A stretch of DNA of 64,000 nucleotides from assembly GCF_009834535.1 (NCBI RefSeq), contig NC_045696.1:48920001-48984000 (forward strand), given 5' to 3'. Position 1 is the stretch's first letter. Every line of letters begins with the position of its first letter. The notes beneath the pieces are model-generated. The model saw nothing but the letters and a program-made list of their open reading frames with translations. It was not told the DNA's origin and made no database searches. The DNA is from Camelus ferus. Lineage: Eukaryota. Positions 1,811 through 57,249 of the stretch are shown here, piece after piece. Made by a program: the position numbers and the translations under genes.

Positions 1811-2457
1811 AGAAGACTATATAATTGCTTAGTGTAGAAGGAGAAAATGAATAATTATTCATTTAATGCAGTCTGATTGAAATACATAGATATAGATACA
1901 TACCCATGAGGGTTGGTGAATTATAAAGGTTCTTTGTAAAGAAGTATTTGTGGACTATTTTAGAACACAAGAAGATGTGGCCTGGAGGCAAGGAGTTACA
2001 GCATAAAACCCAAAAGCTTCCGGTACATACAAGAGTTTGCCTCACTTTCTATGCATGACTCTTTCTGCTGTAGAAAATTCCACATGGTGACAAACTCTCA
2101 TAAGCCAACAACTAAGCGTCAGGGTGATACCCAGTAATATAAAGGCAGATTTATGAAATACCTAATTTAGATCCAAATAATTTTTGATAGGCATTGTATA
2201 ATAGCATATATATGCTTAATAACTTTGAATAAAAGAGCACTAAAATAAGGGTTAAAAGAGAAACGAAGAATAATATATAACTAGTATTTCTTAATCTGAA
2301 AATAATTTCAATCGCCACTCACTCCTAGAAAATAAGGTTTTGCTTTGGTCTCCTTTATTTTATGCCAATTGTAGTCTTCAAGGCCAGGATTCTTTGTTTA
2401 AAAAAGAAATTCTACTTTTGGGGAAATACTGTCAGATTTCAGAAGATTATTTTTAGG

Positions 2458-2821
2458 GGTGGAGGTGCCAAGGTGACAGAGCAGAGAGACTCACAGCTCA
2501 CCCTCTCCCACAAATACACCAAGAATTACATCTACAAACCCACTGATTCACACAGAACACCTACTGAACTCTGGCAGAGTGTCTCTTGCTTTGAAATACA
2601 GGAGGATTCTCACAAAACCTGAAAAACAACAAGTTCACACTGTACAGCACAGGGAACTATATTCAATATCTTATAGTAACTTATGGTGGAAAAGAATATG
2701 AAAACAAATATATGTATGTTAATGTATGTCTGAAGCATGCTATACACCAGAAATTGATACAACATTGTAAACTGACTATACTTCAATGAATGTATATACA
2801 AAAAATTAATTAATTTTTAAA
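2458..2821 (+). mobile_element. Short L1-derived retroelement: L1-like 5' UTR head (2458-2621) fused to L1 3' tail (2622-2821)
   Basis: TSD aagattatttttagg (2443-2457) / aagattgtttttagg (2822-2836); the tail is homologous to the L1 3' UTR at 37440-37612 (-); the head resembles an L1 5' start (ccaaggtgacagag...cagctcaccctctcccacaaatacaccaag). Confidence 0.8.
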
Positions 2822-3599
2822 AAGATTGTTTTTAGGTTAGTCAATTCTATTATAAATTTCATTCCTTGCTTTCTCTCTATAAAATTTCAAGTTTAAGTAG
2901 TATAGATATTAATGCATTTTCTCATCTGTTAAACGTAAAGAATTTGTATTAAAATACTGAATACTGTTATTATAACAATTTTGTGGATATGCTCCAGCAC
3001 GTATAGTAACAAGATAGTCTTCCAAATTCTTTTATCTTATGTAGGAAGGATGACATGAGTTTTTCCATGTCTTAGTGGTATTAAGATATCAGTCAGTATT
3101 AAATGCTATTTCAAATCTCCGGTATCCATTTTCTGTCTCGAATTCCCTTAATGTTGTGTATTTGGGTTGCACCTAAACATATTCTAATCTTCTAAGCTTA
3201 TGACAGACTGAACAGAAATACCATACATTTATTTCTAGCCTCATCATAGTATTTAACTAAGTCAAAATATAAAACACACAAAAAAAGAATGATTTGTGAT
3301 TTGGTGAAGTCATATGCTTTGCACATAATAGTTAAGTATGAGTGAATGAATGTATCCATAAATGAATGAATAACTGAGTGTTTTAGATCTGCAAGGAATC
3401 TTAAAGACCACCCAATTCAACACTCTCAATCTTTCAAAGAAAAACTCTCAGGCCAAAATATTTGATCAAAAGAAATTAATTTTCCCAAAATTTTAATAAT
3501 AAAGACATCTGATAACCCTCTCTATTTTGCTCATATTACTTACTTTAACTTAGTTATATCCAACTACCCACACATAACCTCTCATATGGTAATAGATTT

Positions 3600-7761: not shown

Positions 7762-10737
7762 CTGTTGATGAAAAATATTAGATAAAAACTTCTTTTAAAA
7801 AATTTTTAAGCTTAACAGGAAATCCCCCTGCTGGATGTTTAAACTTAATTTGCTCTTTTAAGATTCAGTCAGTTGAGTAAAACTAAAAACAGCAGGCATC
7901 TGTCTCAAAAACAATACAGAGGCCTTCTCCATCACACCCCCATGGCAAGATGGGGCAAGTACCTGTCCTGATTTGACTTTGGCCCAACTATTGAACACCT
8001 GCTGTATGCAAGACATCCTCCTAGACAACATGAGGATAGAAAAATTGCTTTTTTCAGTCAGATGCCAGCAACTCAGTCAAAATTAACCTTATTTGCCCCC
8101 AAAATTCTTTCTTTATTGCTCAACTTTAGAACCCACCACCTGACTTAGTTTTGTGGTTAACTGTGTTTATGACTGCCTTCTTCATTAGACAAGATTCCTC
8201 TCCACAGAAGGGACCATTTTCCAGACATTTCTAGAGGCCATGACACTTAACACAATACTTGGTCCTTGGGAAGTACATCTAGACACTTAGGCCTGAAAAT
8301 CCTAACCCTACAGCCATTTCCTAGAGCTGATCAACAAATCCTCTAGGTTGGAAGACTCACTTCCAAAGTGAAGAAATTCGGTCATTGTAATGCATAATAA
8401 GAGTCCAAATAGAAAGTGAGCACACGTTATTTATTGTCTCTATGTTTCATGACAAAATTTGAGACACATTGTTAAAAAATATTTTTCACACCTCTGCATC
8501 AATATTTAAGATCATATAAGATAAAATGGCATCAATCACATAACTAAATGCTTCTTTCTGAAAAAATTACATTATATGAAATGCAAAGCAAAATTTAACA
8601 AAATAATCCCTTAAAATTAGGTTGTCCTTTCAGTTATTTCAGTTATTTCACTGCTAGTGAAAACTTTAGTTTTTTTTAAAACTTATGTATTGTTCTCTCT
8701 CCTAGAAATATTGGCAAGTCTGTGCTTTTTCACTTGGATTACAAACATTTTAGAGATACATTTAAAGGTATGTTTTTTGTTTCTGATGTCCAAAAGTTAT
8801 TATTTAGGGAAAACAGCCTTTCTGTCAGAGCATTTGTACATAACAATGAGACAGTGGATCCAAATAATGTCACTGTGTGCTTTGAATCCTATTGGTTTCG
8901 TGACAAACATCTTTATATCCTCTTAGCCATCTCTGCCCCGGAGAGTCTTTCTACTCACCCTGTTCGGCTCACAAACTCTCATTAAATGTAATTTTAGAAT
9001 ATGTTTATTTAACAGATTGTTTTCTAAAAAGTAAGAAAGCCTTCTATGAATTTACAAAAAAAAAAAAAGTCTCCCCTTTTCTACCTGTAAGTTAATAGAG
9101 CCTAAAATAAATCAAGTTTGTTTTTTGTTTTTTTTTTTTGCCTGAGTATATAAAAGCATATCAAATTCCCAGTGCTATCAATATACATCTCACTTCTGGA
9201 ATGTGCACAATATCACTTGTGATTACTGGTTATTTCTTAAAATGGGATATTCCTTTTACCTAGTTGCTTTGAAAGTACACATTTTCTTGATTTTTACATT
9301 CATTTTGACATTAAAATGAAATATAATTTATTTTGAACTTTAAAGAATGCTAGCAATGTAGGCAAGTAACTGCTTTCAGTTATACTTGGAAATATTTGTC
9401 ATGCGTATCACCTTGAATGAGGGACTCAGCTTTGCCTTGCTCAGGCAAACACAGCAGTTGCCCTGGCATTAATATCAGGGGGTGTTCAAAGAGAGTAAGG
9501 TTAGTAAAGCGCATAAAAGTTCCTGCAGATATTTTTGTAAACGTTCCATTTCTCAGCCTCTGACTTGCATCATTCCACTGTTATTGCCAAATCGGGGGGG
9601 ATTCCTGTGGCATTTTGATGTTTTAAGACACTAGTAAGACAGTATGCTTAATACCAGGACCATCCTGGAAATTTTGTGAATCTGATTTAAGAACAACCAC
9701 CCAGATACGTGAATAAATACGTCACATAGGGACGACTTCAGAAGAGAGGCTGCCCAGATAGCCCAGAGCTGGCCACTGAGTTCAGATTCTTTTCCCAGGA
9801 AAAAAGAAGCACCATGCCTCCTTGAGTAATAATCAGTATCCACAATTAATGTTTATCTGCCAATCTGCTGTTGCCAACTGGGTACACTATTTGGGGGGGA
9901 AAGAGCTATCATTCAAAACTATGAATTTGACTTTTCCAAAGGAGTACTGTCTGACTGGCTGAATGTTCTTTGTCTCTTCCATCGCAGCAAGGTATCAGTG
10001 AAATACGATAGACTACAAGGTGGCACATTAAAGGGGAAAACAGCACATATGCGAACACGAACCACCATCTCCTTCCCAAAGAGCCGCTGTTTCCTGACAG
10101 CTCTCTGCATCACCAGATTTGAATAGAAATTCATGTCAAAGCATATGTAAGTCTCATAAAAATTCAATAGTGCTTCTTTTATTAGGAGAGTGCAGGATGT
10201 CCTCAGGAGACATCAGAGCGAATCTGGAATTTAGAGTTCAAGAAATGAAGCAAAATGTAGACATGTGGCGTGGAGCTGCTATTAAGCAGAGTGGAACTAA
10301 CAGTCTCCACCATCTTTTCACCAGAAGAGGCTGCTGCCAGGTGAGAACTGCTCCAGTTTGTGCACGTAAGATCTAAAACACCATCGAATCCTCTGCATTC
10401 TAAGATTACGGAAGCAGGAGTCACAGAAACTTGGTTTTAGACTGGGTTCTACCATAAGCTAGCTTTAAAACCTTGTAAATGAATTTATTGACTTATCCAC
10501 CAATAATTTATGGACCAACAACCCTAAGCCAGACACCGTTTATTGCTGGAAATACAGGTAAACAAAAGAGACAGCTCGTCTCCCCCCATAAAGCTCACAG
10601 TCGAGCATGGCTGACAAATATTAAATATAACCATACAGTGTGCAATAAATATTACAAACAAAAAATATAGTCAATTAGGAATTCTAACGGAGTGGTGAGT
10701 CAGGAAAGGCCCCTCTGAGAAAAGTGACATTTAAGCC

Positions 10738-10911
10738 GGTAGTTCTAAATTTTGTACATTAAAATCAACTGGAGGAGCTTTAAAATCAATGTGAGTGCCT
10801 AACCCTACACCAGATCAAAGGAAGTGAATTGAAGAATGAGGTCCAGTAAGCATTATTTATTAAAATCTCACCTAAGTGATTATTATTTGCGGCCAGCATT
10901 GAGGACCACAG
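10738..10911. mobile_element. MER5-family hAT MITE
   Basis: gtagttctaaa...cattaaaatcaactggaggagctttaaaa...ccagcattgaggaccacag. Confidence 0.65.
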
Positions 10912-11037
10912 ATTTCAGCTGGTATTGGAAGGCAGGAAGAGGCTCAGTAAAGAGTAGAGGGGAAAGTTTTCAAGCCACAAAGAATGATATTTGTCAAAGC
11001 ACTGGAAAGAGCCTGCCATATTTGGGAATTAAAAGGA

Positions 11038-11172
11038 GGAAGAGGGTGTAGCTCCAGTGGTAGAGTGCATGCCTTAGCATGCAAGGGGTCCTGGGTTCAA
11101 TCCCCAGGACCTCCATTAAAATAAAACATACAAATAAAGAAAATAAGCCTAATAACCTCTCCCACAAAAAAA
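11038..11172 (+). mobile_element. tRNA-derived camelid SINE (Vic-1 type)
   Basis: gagggtgtagctccagtggtagagtgcatg (A box), gggttcaatcccc (B box), then A-rich body and aataagcctaataacctctccc tail. Confidence 0.85.
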
Positions 11173-31452: not shown

Positions 31453-31604
31453 TTTAAAAATTTTTTTAAAATTTTGCTTTGGGTGGGAGGCAATTAGGTT
31501 TATTTTTGTTTGTTTATTTATTTAACAGAGGTACTGGGGATCAAATGAACCCAGGACCTTGTGCATGCTAAGCACACACTCTACCACTGAACTATACCTT
31601 CCCT
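31453..31604 (-). mobile_element. tRNA-derived camelid SINE (Vic-1 type)
   Basis: gaggtactgggga...gaacccaggaccttgtgcatgctaagcacacactctaccactgaactatacc; TSD ctactttaatactt (31439-31452) / ctactttaatagtt (31605-31618). Confidence 0.92.
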
Positions 31605-37400: not shown

Positions 37401-37436
37401 TTGACTTAGTGAATTAAATTAGAGGAGCTTGTTCTT

Positions 37437-38187
37437 TTTTTTTTAAATTGAAGTATAGTCAGTTTACAACGTTGTGTCAATATCTGGTGTACAGCAAATT
37501 GCTTCAGTTATACATGAATACACATATATTTATTTTCATATTCTTTTCACCATAAGCTACTACAAGATATCAAATATAGTTCCCTGTGCTATACAGTATA
37601 ACCTTATTTATCTATTTTATGTATACCAGTCAGTATCTGCAACTCTTGAATTCCTAATTTATCACTTCCCATGCCCTTCCACGCTGGTAACCATAAGTTT
37701 GTTTTCTATGTCTGTGAGTCTGTTTCTGTTTTATATATAAGTTCATTTGTCTTTTTTTTTTTTTAGATTCCACATATGAATGATACCATATGGTATTTTT
37801 CTTTCTCCTTCTGGCTTACTTCACTTAGAATAACATTCTCCAGGGACATCCATGCTGCTGAAAATGGCATTGTTTTATTCTTTCCTATGGCTGAGTAGTA
37901 TTCCATTGTATAAATATACCACAACTTCTTTATCCAGTCATCTGTCAATGGACATTTCGGTTGTTTCCATGTCTTGGCTATTGTAAATAGTGCTACTATG
38001 AACATTGGGGTGCATGTGTCTTTTTGAATTAAGGCCCCCTCTGGATATATGCCCAGGAGTGGGATTGTTGGATCATATGGTAAGTCTTTTTTTAGTTTTT
38101 TGAGGAATCTCCATACTTTTTTCCATAATGGCTGCACCAAACTACATTCCCACTGACAGTGTAGGAGGGGTCCTTTTTCTCCACACC
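37437..38187 (-). mobile_element. Young 5'-truncated L1 (ORF2 C-terminus, 3' UTR, polyA)
   Basis: ORF 37763..38218 contains [22 protein letters not shown]...[13 protein letters not shown]...ALFTIAKTWKQPKCP (L1 ORF2p Cys-rich end); TSD tagaggagcttgttctt (37420-37436) / tagaggagcttattttt (38188-38204) with a TTTT/AA endonuclease site. Confidence 0.97.
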
Positions 38188-38384
38188 TAGAGGAGCTTAT
38201 TTTTAAGTCATCAGACATATAGAGAAATATTTATTTTCAGTAATGTTCTCTGTAGTGTTTTTAGAAGAACTTTGGTGAAATGAAAAAGATCTGAATGTTC
38301 TCAACTAGAAAAGCAGTTCTAAATGTTAAGATATTTATAAAGTGCATTATAATGTAATTAAAAAAATTATATTTATAAAAATTA

Positions 38385-41300
38385 CTATTGCCAGTCAAAA
38401 TCTAGGAGCTGACTATAGCCTGACTCCTCAACTGATTACAACTACAATCTCTGGACTAAAATGCAAAATGTAGTTACTTAAATAAGCAGATTGGGGAGGG
38501 AAAGTCAAAGCTAGAGGAAGGAATACACATAAGTGTGACTTTCCCAGGATTTTTCTCCTCTTTTCCCTCATGATAGAAAGGTGAGAGTATACCCCGGTCA
38601 TAGCAAAACCTAATCTTTTGTGTCAGTGAACAGGGCTAAAGGTCCTCTGTAAGATAGAAAGTATAGAGGAATCCAATAGAAGAGAAAGCTGAAGAAGGGA
38701 ATTTTCTATATTCTATGCATAAATCAGCCAAAGTCCTAAGCTTACCTCTGAGCTGTAAGAGCATAGGAAAGATCCAAAGTAACAGAAAAAGCTTTGAGAC
38801 TTGAACTACAATATAAAGCATGATCCTAATTCCTGACTGATCCCTGCATGGCACATGAGTGGCACAGACCCAAAGCAATGTGGCAGAGGCTTGAAAACTA
38901 ACCTGATATTTAAACCACTACTAAATAAGGTAAGAAAAGAAACTGTTATCCAACCCTAAATAGGTTAAATGCCTGCCAAAACCACAACAAAGTCAACATT
39001 GTCAATAGAATTTTAACAGAACCCAGACTCTCAAAATATAATGTTTGAAGTGTACAGTATATATCCAAAAATACTCAACATGCAAAAATCCAGGACAATA
39101 TAATGAAGTATTAAGGTCAAAAAAAATAATTAACAGTTGCCAAATATAAAACAACCCAATTGTTGGAATTGCACAGCAATTTTACAGCAGATAATATGAT
39201 TATTGTTCCATTAATTAAAAGTAAATGCACTTGAAATAAATGGGAAAACAGAAATTTTCAGCAGAAAATTAAAGTAAAAATGAAAACTTTAGAACTGAAA
39301 AAACATAATATGTAAATTATTCTTAATTCACTTATGAGTTCAACAGAATAGAGACAACAGAAGATAATCTGGGAACTTGGAAATAGATCAACAGAAACTA
39401 TCCCAATGGAGAAGAGTATATTGGAAAAATGTAACAGTTTTAGGTCCCTGTGGGACAATATCAAAAGTTCTAACATTCTTGTCACAGGAGTCCTTTAAGG
39501 AGAGAGAAAGAAAGTGGTACAGAAAACAATACTTGAAGAAATATTGGCTAAAATATCCCCCAAATTAATGAAAGACATAGATTGAGAGATTCAAGAAGCT
39601 CAGTAAACCCTAAACAAGATAAACTCAGACGTGAAATACCATGTTCAGATATATCATAATCAAACTGCTAAGTATCAAAGATAAAGAAAAAAATCTTTAA
39701 AGTAGTGAGAGAAAAATGATAAATTACATATACGGGGCAACAATTCAAATGAAGGCAGTTTTCTCACTAGAAAACAGTAAAGGAAATAGAATGCTAGAGA
39801 AGAGTAAAGCAATCTTGTAGATACTGAAAGAAAAGAACTGTGAACCCAAAAATTTATAGCCAATGAAAACATTCATTAGACATAAAGGTGAAATAAAGAT
39901 ATTACTAGATGAAAGAAAACTAAGAGAATCTGTTTGCAATAGATCTACCCCAAATAATATACTAAGGGAATTTCTTCCTATTTAAGGAAAGTAATGCCAA
40001 TCCTATACAATCTCTTCCAGAAAACTCTTCCCAAATTATTTTATTAGGCCAGAATTACCCTGATATCAAACCAGACACCAACACCAAAAGAAAACTACAG
40101 ATCAATATCCCTCATAAACATAAGATACAAAACTCCTAAACAAAATAATATGAAATTGAATCCAGCAACATGTTGCTGGAGAAGATAATACATCTTCTCA
40201 ACTAAGTGGTCTCTGTCTCAAAATGAAAAGCGGGGCAAACAACCGAAAATCAATCAATATAATTCACTGTACCAACATTCTGGAGATTAAGAAATATATG
40301 ATCATCTCAAAAGTTACAAAAAAAATTTTCAACTTGCATTCATGATCTCACTAAGTGAGGAATACATGAGAAATTCCCTAGTTTGACAAAGGTCATTGTG
40401 ATGGTTAATATTATTTGTCACTTTGTACAAAAGAATGTCCAGATTAAACATTATTTCTGGGTGTGTCTGCGAGGGTGTTTCCAGATAAGATTAGCATCTG
40501 AATCAGTGGACTTGTAAAATAGATTTCTCCCATGCTGATGTGGTAGGTATCATCCAATCCTGGCCTGAACAGGACAAAAAGGTGGCAGAAGGCGGAATTC
40601 ACCCTTTTTGTTTCCTGCCTGTTTGCTTGAGCCATCAGTCTCCTTTTGCCCTTGGACTGGAATTTACACCACTTCCTGGTTCTCTGGCCTTCAGACTGGG
40701 ACTAGAATTCACCACCAGCTTTCCTATGTCTCCAGCTTGCAAGGCCATAGGACCTCTCAGATCTTCATTATCGTGAGAGCCAATTCCTCCTAATAAATCT
40801 CTCTAGATAGAGTTATAGATATAAATAGGCATATAGGTATCCATATCTATATAAGCATATAGGCATATATGCCTATCTATGTCTATACCTACAGAAGAGA
40901 GATCTCCTACTGATTGTTTCCTAGGAGAACCCTGACATACAGTCATCTATCAAAATACATACACACATTGATTAAAAAATTATGGCTAACATAATACTCA
41001 GTGGTGAAGCCTGGATATTTTCCTCCGAATATCAGAAGCAAGGCAAAGAATTAAAAGGAGTACATATTGGCAAGGAGGAAATAAGACTTTATTATCAAAT
41101 ATGATCTTCTACATTAAAAAAAATTTTTAATTTACCAAAAAGCACTTAGCCCTAACAATTATGTTTAACATAGTCACAAAATACAAGGTCAAAAATGTCT
41201 AGGATCAGCATCCTAAAAACTAAAAACACTAAAGAAAGAATCAAAGATTGAAATAATGGAGAGATAAATCATGTTGTTCATTAATTGGAGAATTCAGTAT

Positions 41301-42790
41301 CACTAGGATGTCAGTTCTCCCTAGACTGATCAATAAGTTCATTACAAACTTAGTCAAATTCCCAGCAGGATTATTTTGCACATATTGACAAACTGTTTAT
41401 AAAATATATATGGTTAGGCAAAGGGACTAAAACAAACTTTTCTGAAAAACATGAAAGTTACATACGATCTGATTTCAAGATTTACTATAAAAGCCATAGT
41501 AATGAAGACAGTGTAGTACTCCTGAAAGGACAGACACACAGGTCAGAGGAACAGAACAGCAAGTGCAGAAATTGGCCCACATGACTACCGTCAGTTGGCT
41601 CTGACAGTAGTGCGAAACAAATCTGACAGGGAAATGATAGTCTACTACACAAATGGTGGTAGAACAATTAAATACATACACACAGAAAAGAAAAACCCAA
41701 TACACACCTCAAACCTTATGTAAAAATTAGCTCAAATTAATACATATACCTATATGTAAAAGCTAAAATTATAAAATTTACAGAAGGAAGTGTAAAAGAA
41801 AAACTTTGTGCCATGGGTTAAACAAAGGAATTTTAGATATACCAAAAGCACAATCTATGGAAGAAAACAATTAAAAATTGACCTTATCAAAATATAAACT
41901 TTGCCCTGTTAAGAGGATGAAAAACAAACCACACACTGGGAGGAAATATTTGCCAATCACATATTTGATGAAGGACTTGACCCAGAACACATAAAGAATT
42001 CTGAAAACTCGATAATAAGAAAACAAAACCCCATTTTTAAAATGGGATAGAGGTTTGAATATTTCACCAAAGAAGAATATGGATCCCAATAACCATGTGA
42101 CAGAATGCTCAACATCACTACTCATCAAGGGAATACATATTAAAACCACAATGAGATACCATTACACGTCTATTAAAGTGGCTTTAAAATACTGTCAATG
42201 TCAAGTGCTGATGAGGATGGAGAGCGACTCATACTTTGCTTGTGAGAATGAAAAATAGTATGGCCACTTTGGAAAACACCTTGCCAGTTTGTTATATGTC
42301 TAATCTAAATATTTATGATACAGCAATCCTACTCCTAGGTATTTACCCAAGAGAAATGAAACTTATGTTTACACAAAAACCTATATGAATGTTTTAGCAT
42401 TCTGTTCATAATTGCTGAAAACTGGAAGCAACTCAGATGTCCTTCAGTCCATAAATGGATGAGCAAACTCTGGTGTGTTCATATCATAAAATGCTAATCA
42501 ATGATAAAAGGGCAACAATATGAGTATATTTGAAATTGTTCCATCGTATGAGATCATGGAAAAGACAAAATGACGATTACTAGTTAATGAAAAATTAGTG
42601 ATTGCCAGTTTGGGGTGGTGGAGGGATTAACCACAGAGGAGAAGTATGGGGAATTTTCTGCGGATGGTGAGGGAACTGCTCTGTATCTTCATTACGGTGG
42701 TAGGTGCACAACTCTAAGCTGTTTTGAAAGCTCACAGAACTATGCATAAGGATGAGTGATTTTTACCGTATATAATTAATAAAATATTTT
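38385..42790 (+). mobile_element. Old, internally deleted near-full-length L1M (5' UTR, ORF1, ORF2 parts, 3' UTR)
   Basis: ORF1 motifs attcaagaagctcagtaaaccctaaacaagataaa; RT motifs ggccagaattaccctgatatcaaaccagac and aactacagatcaatatccctc; ORF2 end aaaccacaatgagataccattacac and cctaggtatttacccaagagaaatgaaa. Confidence 0.92.
40397..40941 (+). mobile_element. MLT2-type ERVL solo LTR nested in L1 ORF2
   Basis: TG...CA ends (tgtgatggttaat...ggagaaccctgacataca), perfect 5-bp TSD gtcat, AATAAA followed by an (AT)-rich microsatellite. Confidence 0.92.
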
Positions 42791-42791
42791 A

Positions 42792-42937
42792 CGTTATGGT
42801 AGCTCACAGAGAAAAAAATGTGACAATGAGTGTGTATATGTCCATGTATGACTGAAAAATTGTGCTGAACACTGGAATTTGACACAACATTGTAAAATGA
42901 TTATAAATCAATAAAAAATGTTAAAAAAAAATAAAAA
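42792..42937 (+). mobile_element. Very young, severely 5'-truncated L1 3' end
   Basis: gtagctcacagagaaaaaaatgtgacaatg...gacacaacattgtaaaatgattataaatcaataaaaaatgtt(a)n; perfect 20-bp TSD ataattaataaaatatttta (42772-42791 / 42938-42957). Confidence 0.93.
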
Positions 42938-43359
42938 ATAATTAATAAAATATTTTAAAAGATCATATTTAGAGGAATGTTTAATTACATGGGAAGTTTT
43001 CATTAAAAAATCAAGAAACAAAAGTATTACCCAATTGTGTGAAGAAAGAAAATCAATAGAAAACTATTAGAAAGAAATGCTTCAAAACATTAGCCACAGG
43101 AGCTGTCATGTCAGGATGGACAATTTATAGGTGAATGTTATTTTCTCCTTTCTTCTTACTTTTCCCCAAACTATCTACAAAGAACATATATTGATTTTAA
43201 AAATCAAAGAAAAATAATCAATGCTATTTAAAATGATCATAGCTGATAATTGTCCATTCGATTTCTCCAAATACCCCATAGCTTTCTCAAGTTTGTACAT
43301 GTATACATCTTAAAACTAAATTTAAAAAAAAAAACTAAATCAATCCGCTCCCCACCCCC

Positions 43360-57113: not shown

Positions 57114-57249
57114 GTGGGGAAGGGATAGCTCAGTGGTAGAGCGTCTGCCCAGAAAGCACAGGTCCTGGGTTCAATACCCAGTACCTCTGTTTAAAATAAA
57201 CAAACAAACTTAATTACCTCCTTCTCAAAAAAAAATTTTAAAGTTGAAA
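57114..57249 (+). mobile_element. tRNA-derived camelid SINE (Vic-1 type)
   Basis: ggggaagggatagctcagtggtagagcg...ggtcctgggttcaatacccagtacctc; TSD aaaaaacttctca (57099) / aaaaaaattctca (57250). Confidence 0.9.

Follow-up and report, generated by a model that had tools for sequence, protein, structure and literature searches.

In the window, a stretch of 64,000 nucleotides of Camelus ferus contig NC_045696.1, an insert of 364 bp (2458-2821) is bracketed by a 15-bp target-site duplication (TSD) whose two copies agree at 14 of 15 positions. A first-pass annotation of this DNA had proposed a TSD-flanked insert of exactly this size, and the duplication holds up well against chance, 13/15 being the best agreement among 1998 random pairs of 61-nt segments from the window. 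From left to right, the insert is composed of a 164-bp head, a 166-bp piece of L1 3' UTR and a decayed A-tail (Table 1). The 15-bp TSD, within the usual range of about 6-25 bp, and the 34-bp A-rich tail are hallmarks of target-primed reverse transcription, and they are read from this copy only.

Table 1. Parts of the insert and the comparison L1 in the window, with the evidence for each
Feature	Positions	Strand	Evidence
Left TSD, 15 bp (15/17 if extended two bases to the left)	2443-2457	+	Sequence; random-pair control
Head, 164 nt assigned to the start of an L1 5' UTR whose type is common to pig L1B/L1C	2458-2621	+	L010 alignment; pig consensuses; P0002
Head-tail junction, common to other loci	2621-2622	+	Run contigs: allele counts, bridging pieces
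Tail, the last 166 nt of an L1 3' UTR, starting directly after AG in bulk L1	2622-2787	+	Match to L1 in the window; loose-end consensus before 2624 and before 2639
Decayed A-rich tail, 34 bp	2788-2821	+	Sequence; bulk L1 contigs enter poly(A) past 2787
Right TSD	2822-2836	+	Sequence; random-pair control
5'-truncated L1 (end of ORF2 and 3' UTR), about 760 bp, with its own 11-bp TSD; comparison only	37420-38198	-	AG before the shared tail

The tail had been described as about 200 bp of sequence homologous to the 3' UTR of an L1 near 37 kb. The homology stands, with window positions 2628-2787 matching the 3' UTR of that L1 at 37608-37447 (minus strand) at 86% over 163 columns (E 4e-49). The length does not: because contigs of bulk L1 run into poly(A) past 2787, the 3' UTR part of the tail is 166 bp long and the remaining 34 bp are A-tail. 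No ORF1 sequence was found in the 364 bp of the insert, the tail being 3' UTR only, and a self-comparison of the window found no second copy of the head within it. The comparison L1 carries an open frame at 37763-38230, which we take to be the ORF2-like C-terminal end of L1; a Pfam search of this ORF2 end (37766-38230) gave no match.

Other repeats in the window were noted in passing. An isolated fragment at 42811-42956 (+), the final ~145 bp of the 3' UTR of a related L1 together with an A-tail, is 70% alike to the tail and lies behind an older and decayed L1 (about 41200-42800). Three related short repeats, 75-78% alike (11042-11168, 31465-31603 and 57117-57242), are probably a tRNA-derived SINE family, two of them having Rfam tRNA matches.

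The first-pass annotation had suggested that the head represents the start of an L1 5' UTR. A metagenome scan with a head motif yielded 14 loci, two of which (L019 and L020) were chance matches, while the other 12 collapse into two host loci (seven and five overlapping contigs) that are closer to pig L1B than to the camelid type. One of these contigs, L010, has its homologue of the head from 6965 onwards, then an ORF1-like frame at 8661 and, at 10233-10970, a frame for the L1 endonuclease (PF03372, E 2.5e-11); the second piece of this ORF1 reaches Transposase_22 only below the cut-off (E 0.004), and the first piece has no Pfam match. The head aligns to L010 with a local score of 119.8, the maximum in 500 shuffles being 56.9, and by eye it also matches the first 165-170 nt of the pig L1B, L1C, L1D and L1A7 consensuses in the accessible part of a supplementary file (PMC6501411, supplementary file 1). 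Two word-index protein searches yielded only P0002, a peptide predicted on a Logan contig and 82% identical to the frame of the head over 38 residues; a further candidate, P0003, is a repeat protein with no match on reading and was set aside as a chance hit. Judged by these comparisons the head is the start of an L1 5' UTR, and the original suggestion is borne out by the frames downstream in L010 together with the pig consensuses. It is not a classical SINE head (tRNA, 7SL, 5S or snRNA), as no part of the element matches an Rfam family at the gathering threshold and the head itself is assigned to L1 5' UTR.

Searches further afield gave little. The head pattern returned no loci in viral contigs and none in a first metagenome scan, and its nine loci in prokaryote genomes were rejected as chance, with a match length of only 18-22 nt; the tail pattern had no loci in viral and prokaryote contigs, and the element had no blastn match in plasmids or phages. 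Within the head, a 49-codon frame (2473-2622, +) begins at a GTG, where L010 and pig L1 have ATG, and stops at the junction; it is possibly a putative upstream ORF of this L1 5' UTR type.

Whether the arrangement is peculiar to this locus can be judged from contigs of three DNA runs and one RNA run (X15), aligned at 80% likeness; the runs with the stretch come from three organisms, and the small-share runs X17-X24 were left aside. One contig per DNA run covers 2300-2505 without a difference, and this insertion is therefore present in all three organisms. The junction is bridged by 12 of the 32 pieces listed from the four runs (of about 99,570), each with at least 31 nt on both sides, and a thirteenth listed piece misses the 31-nt threshold by one base. 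As the bridging pieces carry 18-31 differences each, they come from other loci, about nine of which look distinct after twins from different runs are merged; some pieces have 8-14 gap positions, and in those the exact junction is less sure. Allele counts agree. T at 2623 is found in 57, 47, 47 and 21 contigs of the four runs, and C at 2620 in 28, 23, 17 and 12, and the latter almost certainly span the junction, because clipping would remove such a mismatch from an alignment confined to the head. The majority states of the junction contigs (2620 T>C, 2621 G>A, 2623 A>T) describe a decaying CpG followed by AT. The element is thus multi-copy, with one shared junction at separate loci, as the first-pass annotation had anticipated.

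These observations bear on the simplest explanation of the insert, namely a single full-length L1 that lost its interior by deletion after insertion. Within the window the copy is indeed single, and nothing further speaks for such an event, but the pieces listed include about nine further loci joined at the identical point, and each DNA run has 47-57 contigs carrying the junction allele, neither of which fits it. The recurrence of the junction refutes a single-copy deletion, short of the bridging contigs being artefacts of alignment, and we regard it as extremely improbable.

Summed depth, taken relative to that of the single-copy flank, corresponds to 154-188 copies (roughly 150-190), a crude estimate given that summed depth is not copy number; the C allele at 2620 on its own sets a floor of 71-94. 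On equally crude depth, the junction form accounts for 11-24% of heads (floor 5-7%) and about 0.1% of tails (junction/tail depth ratio 0.0008-0.0010). The CpG at 2620-2621 is kept in only ~29% of the depth and copies differ by 10-17%, which points to an old burst, probably on the order of tens of millions of years. Separately, run X5 contains joints leading from the tail back to the start of the head (2676 to 2461 and 2691 to 2465), which are probably head-bearing elements inserted in A-rich L1 3' UTRs.

The ends that meet at the junction are informative as to how it was made. Loose ends before 2624 (588, 508, 533 and 173 contigs in the four runs) give a consensus that ends in AAAATAG and continues with AT; an AG directly precedes the tail in this bulk L1 consensus in all four runs and in the 37 kb L1, in agreement with what had been noticed in that L1 at the outset. 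The exact register of the tail was taken from the bulk consensus, since two nucleotides immediately behind the AG have been lost from the 37 kb copy alone. On the side of the head, the register was set by a scan of its last 14 nt, MAFFT being one column off owing to an end gap. The best register in L010 matches 10 of 14 (next best 5) and lies directly before GTAGAA. GT likewise follows the head in 21 of the 24 pig consensuses with a homologous head visible (8 L1B and 13 L1C), the exceptions being L1A7 with AT and L1D1 and L1D2 with GC (PMC6501411, supplementary file 1, as far as the accessible part extends); the L013 copy also lacks GT at this column.

For the camelid type itself, a single witness came to light, P0002. 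Where the translated window has Pro-Glu-Lys, P0002 has Ser-Gly-Arg, and this Gly-Arg falls opposite GGT AGA in L010, so that by its glycine codon G follows the head in the long element of camelid type, with T compatible but not read. The expectation of GT after the head is supported for related L1s, in L010 and most of the available pig consensuses, while for the camelid type only the G is fixed. Two head-only loci (record 30 of run X5; record 21 of X2 with record 28 of X5) stop aligning at 2621 by a reading of coordinates, and a stop at 2621 instead of 2622 fits a next base other than A. GT and AG would coincide at the ends of a random deletion with a probability of about 0.002, or 0.004 allowing for a shared G (from dinucleotide frequencies). 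None of the three sequence-based outcomes that the first-pass annotation had listed against its own proposal (a head that is not L1, the absence of GT/AG, a single copy) occurred, the GT being read in relatives and only its G in the camelid type.

The common junction, the AG acceptor, the GT in relatives, the G in P0002 and the low probability of chance together argue that the head and tail were very probably joined by splicing. Several features count against this: no polypyrimidine tract precedes the acceptor, the last 40 nt being 40% pyrimidine; the donors of relatives, GTAGAA and GTAAAA, fit the consensus weakly; and L1A7, L1D1/D2 and L013 depart from GT as described. The join could instead have arisen without any splicing, if a template switch or microhomology deletion in reverse transcription had made one head-plus-tail master that was then amplified. 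Both sides of the junction are A-rich, the acceptor is weak, local alignment of both head and tail continues past the junction into L1 5' UTR, and AGATA at this column in pig L1A7 (again in the accessible part of PMC6501411) would constitute a 5-nt microhomology with the tail; moreover, internal deletion is the origin stated for known bipartite LINEs, as proposed for RTE and Vingi derivatives in the available text of Kojima 2018 (PMC5786205). However, with the G that camelid-type P0002 has in place of A after the head only one base would be shared, the two head-only loci stop one base too early, and the GT..AG ends would be a rare coincidence, all of which leaves this alternative improbable and splicing the preferred origin.

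A second joint with GT..AG ends, from 2578 to 2648, occurs in one contig per DNA run (three runs) and is the sole head-to-tail joint among the 15 shown of 67. It connects nt 121 of the head with a position 26 nt deeper in the tail, a 69-nt skip, and supports splicing weakly, in that its shorter side is 24-25 nt and the content between its ends is marked as not known; it is possibly a second splice form, either from full-length L1 or from a re-spliced short copy. In pig, the youngest family (L1D1, L1D2) has GC where the older L1B and L1C have the GT donor, and the 3' UTRs compared have GG at the acceptor column (PMC6501411, accessible part). These states could possibly reflect a loss of splice sites over L1 evolution.

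On balance we favour an account in which full-length L1 RNA was spliced and the product likely reverse-transcribed in trans, most of the many copies being dead ends. A full-length L1 transcript would be spliced from the GT donor at nt 165 to the AG acceptor in the 3' UTR, a join that we infer to be the work of the spliceosome, and the resulting RNA of ~330 nt plus poly(A) would have no ORF. Because both ORFs are missing, action in trans would be needed: L1 proteins from other transcripts would insert the spliced RNA by target-primed reverse transcription, and copies would come repeatedly from full-length L1 transcripts, not from one another. Most multi-kb L1s lose their 5' end on insertion, but an RNA of ~330 nt would almost always insert with its head intact, which would explain why the short form is so much better represented among heads than among tails. 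There is precedent in human, where the retrocopies known as SpIREs form by splicing of L1 RNA and are described as dead ends in the sections available (Larson et al. 2018, PMC5860796).

The same splice origin is also compatible with a different sequel, in which one or a few inserted copies, transcribed from the 164-nt head, seeded most of the others and so constituted an ORF-less parasite of L1, driven by Pol II and propagating itself, as in the SINE-like family of the first-pass annotation. That so many heads are in the short form, even at the floor far above the 1.8% of human SpIRE97/622, could point to self-propagation and sits less comfortably with dead-end copying. There is, in addition, one dominant junction, and the element has retained the very 5' terminus from which LINEs are transcribed according to the part of Kojima 2018 at hand (PMC5786205). 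The 2578-2648 joint, with donor and acceptor both inside the short element, could stem from a re-spliced transcript of a short copy, and junction contigs occur in RNA run X15, although contigs cannot show transcription and this run also covers the flanks and may hold DNA, so that they are not evidence of it. Against self-propagation, human SpIRE97/622 retains 97 nt plus the final third of the 5' UTR and even so its promoter activity is much lower (PMC5860796, available sections), the short form amounts to only ~0.1% of L1 tails, a range that trans-mobilisation could give, and this copy shows no RNA fold signal (z +1.55, with 99 of 100 shuffles folding as well). We therefore hold self-propagation to be a tentative reading, and on present numbers a SINE-like family is less likely than repeated trans-mobilisation from full-length L1s. 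The stronger proposition, that a single splice made a 330-nt Pol II-driven ORF-less L1 parasite amplifying from its own copies in camelids, seems doubtful.

Comparison with described systems helps to place the element. SpIREs share with it the internal loss of L1 sequence, an AG acceptor (and the 5' UTR GT donor in relatives), a TSD, an A-tail, and many copies with one junction. The classes described in the accessible sections of Larson et al. 2018 are nevertheless intra-5' UTR or 5' UTR/ORF1, with acceptors at 620, 788, 851 and 974 and ORF2 kept (PMC5860796), whereas here the acceptor lies in the 3' UTR, both ORFs are lost, both proteins would have to be supplied in trans, and the product is SINE-sized. 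Its share of heads, on crude depth, is also larger than that of the main human class, SpIRE97/622, which makes up 116 of 6,609 full-length L1PA1-6 elements (1.8%), other classes contributing 15 of 131 SpIREs (PMC5860796, same sections). One later SpIRE case was revived by a host promoter, as reported in the portion available of PMC13174262. SpORF2 and other spliced L1 RNAs similarly join a 5' UTR donor to a distant acceptor in L1 RNA, but in the available text of Belancio et al. 2010 the acceptors are at 1837/1920 and ORF2 is kept (PMC2896524), while it is lost here.

In architecture the closer parallels are ORF-less bipartite LINEs, among which the available text of Kojima 2018 counts RIME, NARTc, Vingi-1 derivatives, Bov-A, RTESINE1/2 and WALLSI3 (PMC5786205). 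These, too, consist of LINE 5' and 3' ends only, have no ORF, are multi-copy and are trans-mobilised. In the same text, however, such elements are reported from RTE, Ingi, Vingi and R2 only and are attributed to internal deletion, with splicing unmentioned (PMC5786205); the element described here differs in having a mammalian L1 as parent, ends that look like splice sites and, set against their propagation, candidate dead-end copying. What that text lists for L1 is the ORF1-bearing HAL1 (PMC5786205), or half-L1, a non-autonomous derivative that keeps ORF1 (Bao and Jurka 2010, as cited in the parts available of PMC5786205 and PMC13756887). HAL1 resembles the present element in being non-autonomous and in having both ends of L1, but the latter is a 364-bp element without an ORF.

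No prior description was found in full-text searches of the literature; an unnamed consensus in Repbase, Dfam or SINEBase is quite possible. The available text of PMC13756887 and PMC2896524 contributed nothing beyond HAL1 and SpORF2, though Belancio 2006 may list further 3' acceptors. The element was not found in the accessible text of a paper on camel transposable elements (PMC8605555), whose supplementary library may contain it, and one supplementary file of PMC5381506 had no motif match. In standard annotation each copy would probably be split into two L1 fragments, and the element as such would be missed.

An ORF-less head-plus-tail form derived from L1 is absent from the list in the 2018 survey, to the extent that its text was available (PMC5786205), and the present element would take spliced L1 retrocopies beyond the small 5' losses known in primates, to the extreme of losing both ORFs. 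Given that the pig consensuses compared, in the part available, have GG and not AG at the acceptor column, pigs should lack the form. With ~150-190 copies per genome (on the crude depth estimate), it becomes testable whether spliced L1 copies are always dead ends or whether one of them became a SINE-like family. If self-propagation were true, this would be the first ORF-less bipartite family from L1, it would contradict the view of spliced L1 copies as dead ends, and splicing would be a route from a LINE to a SINE-like element.
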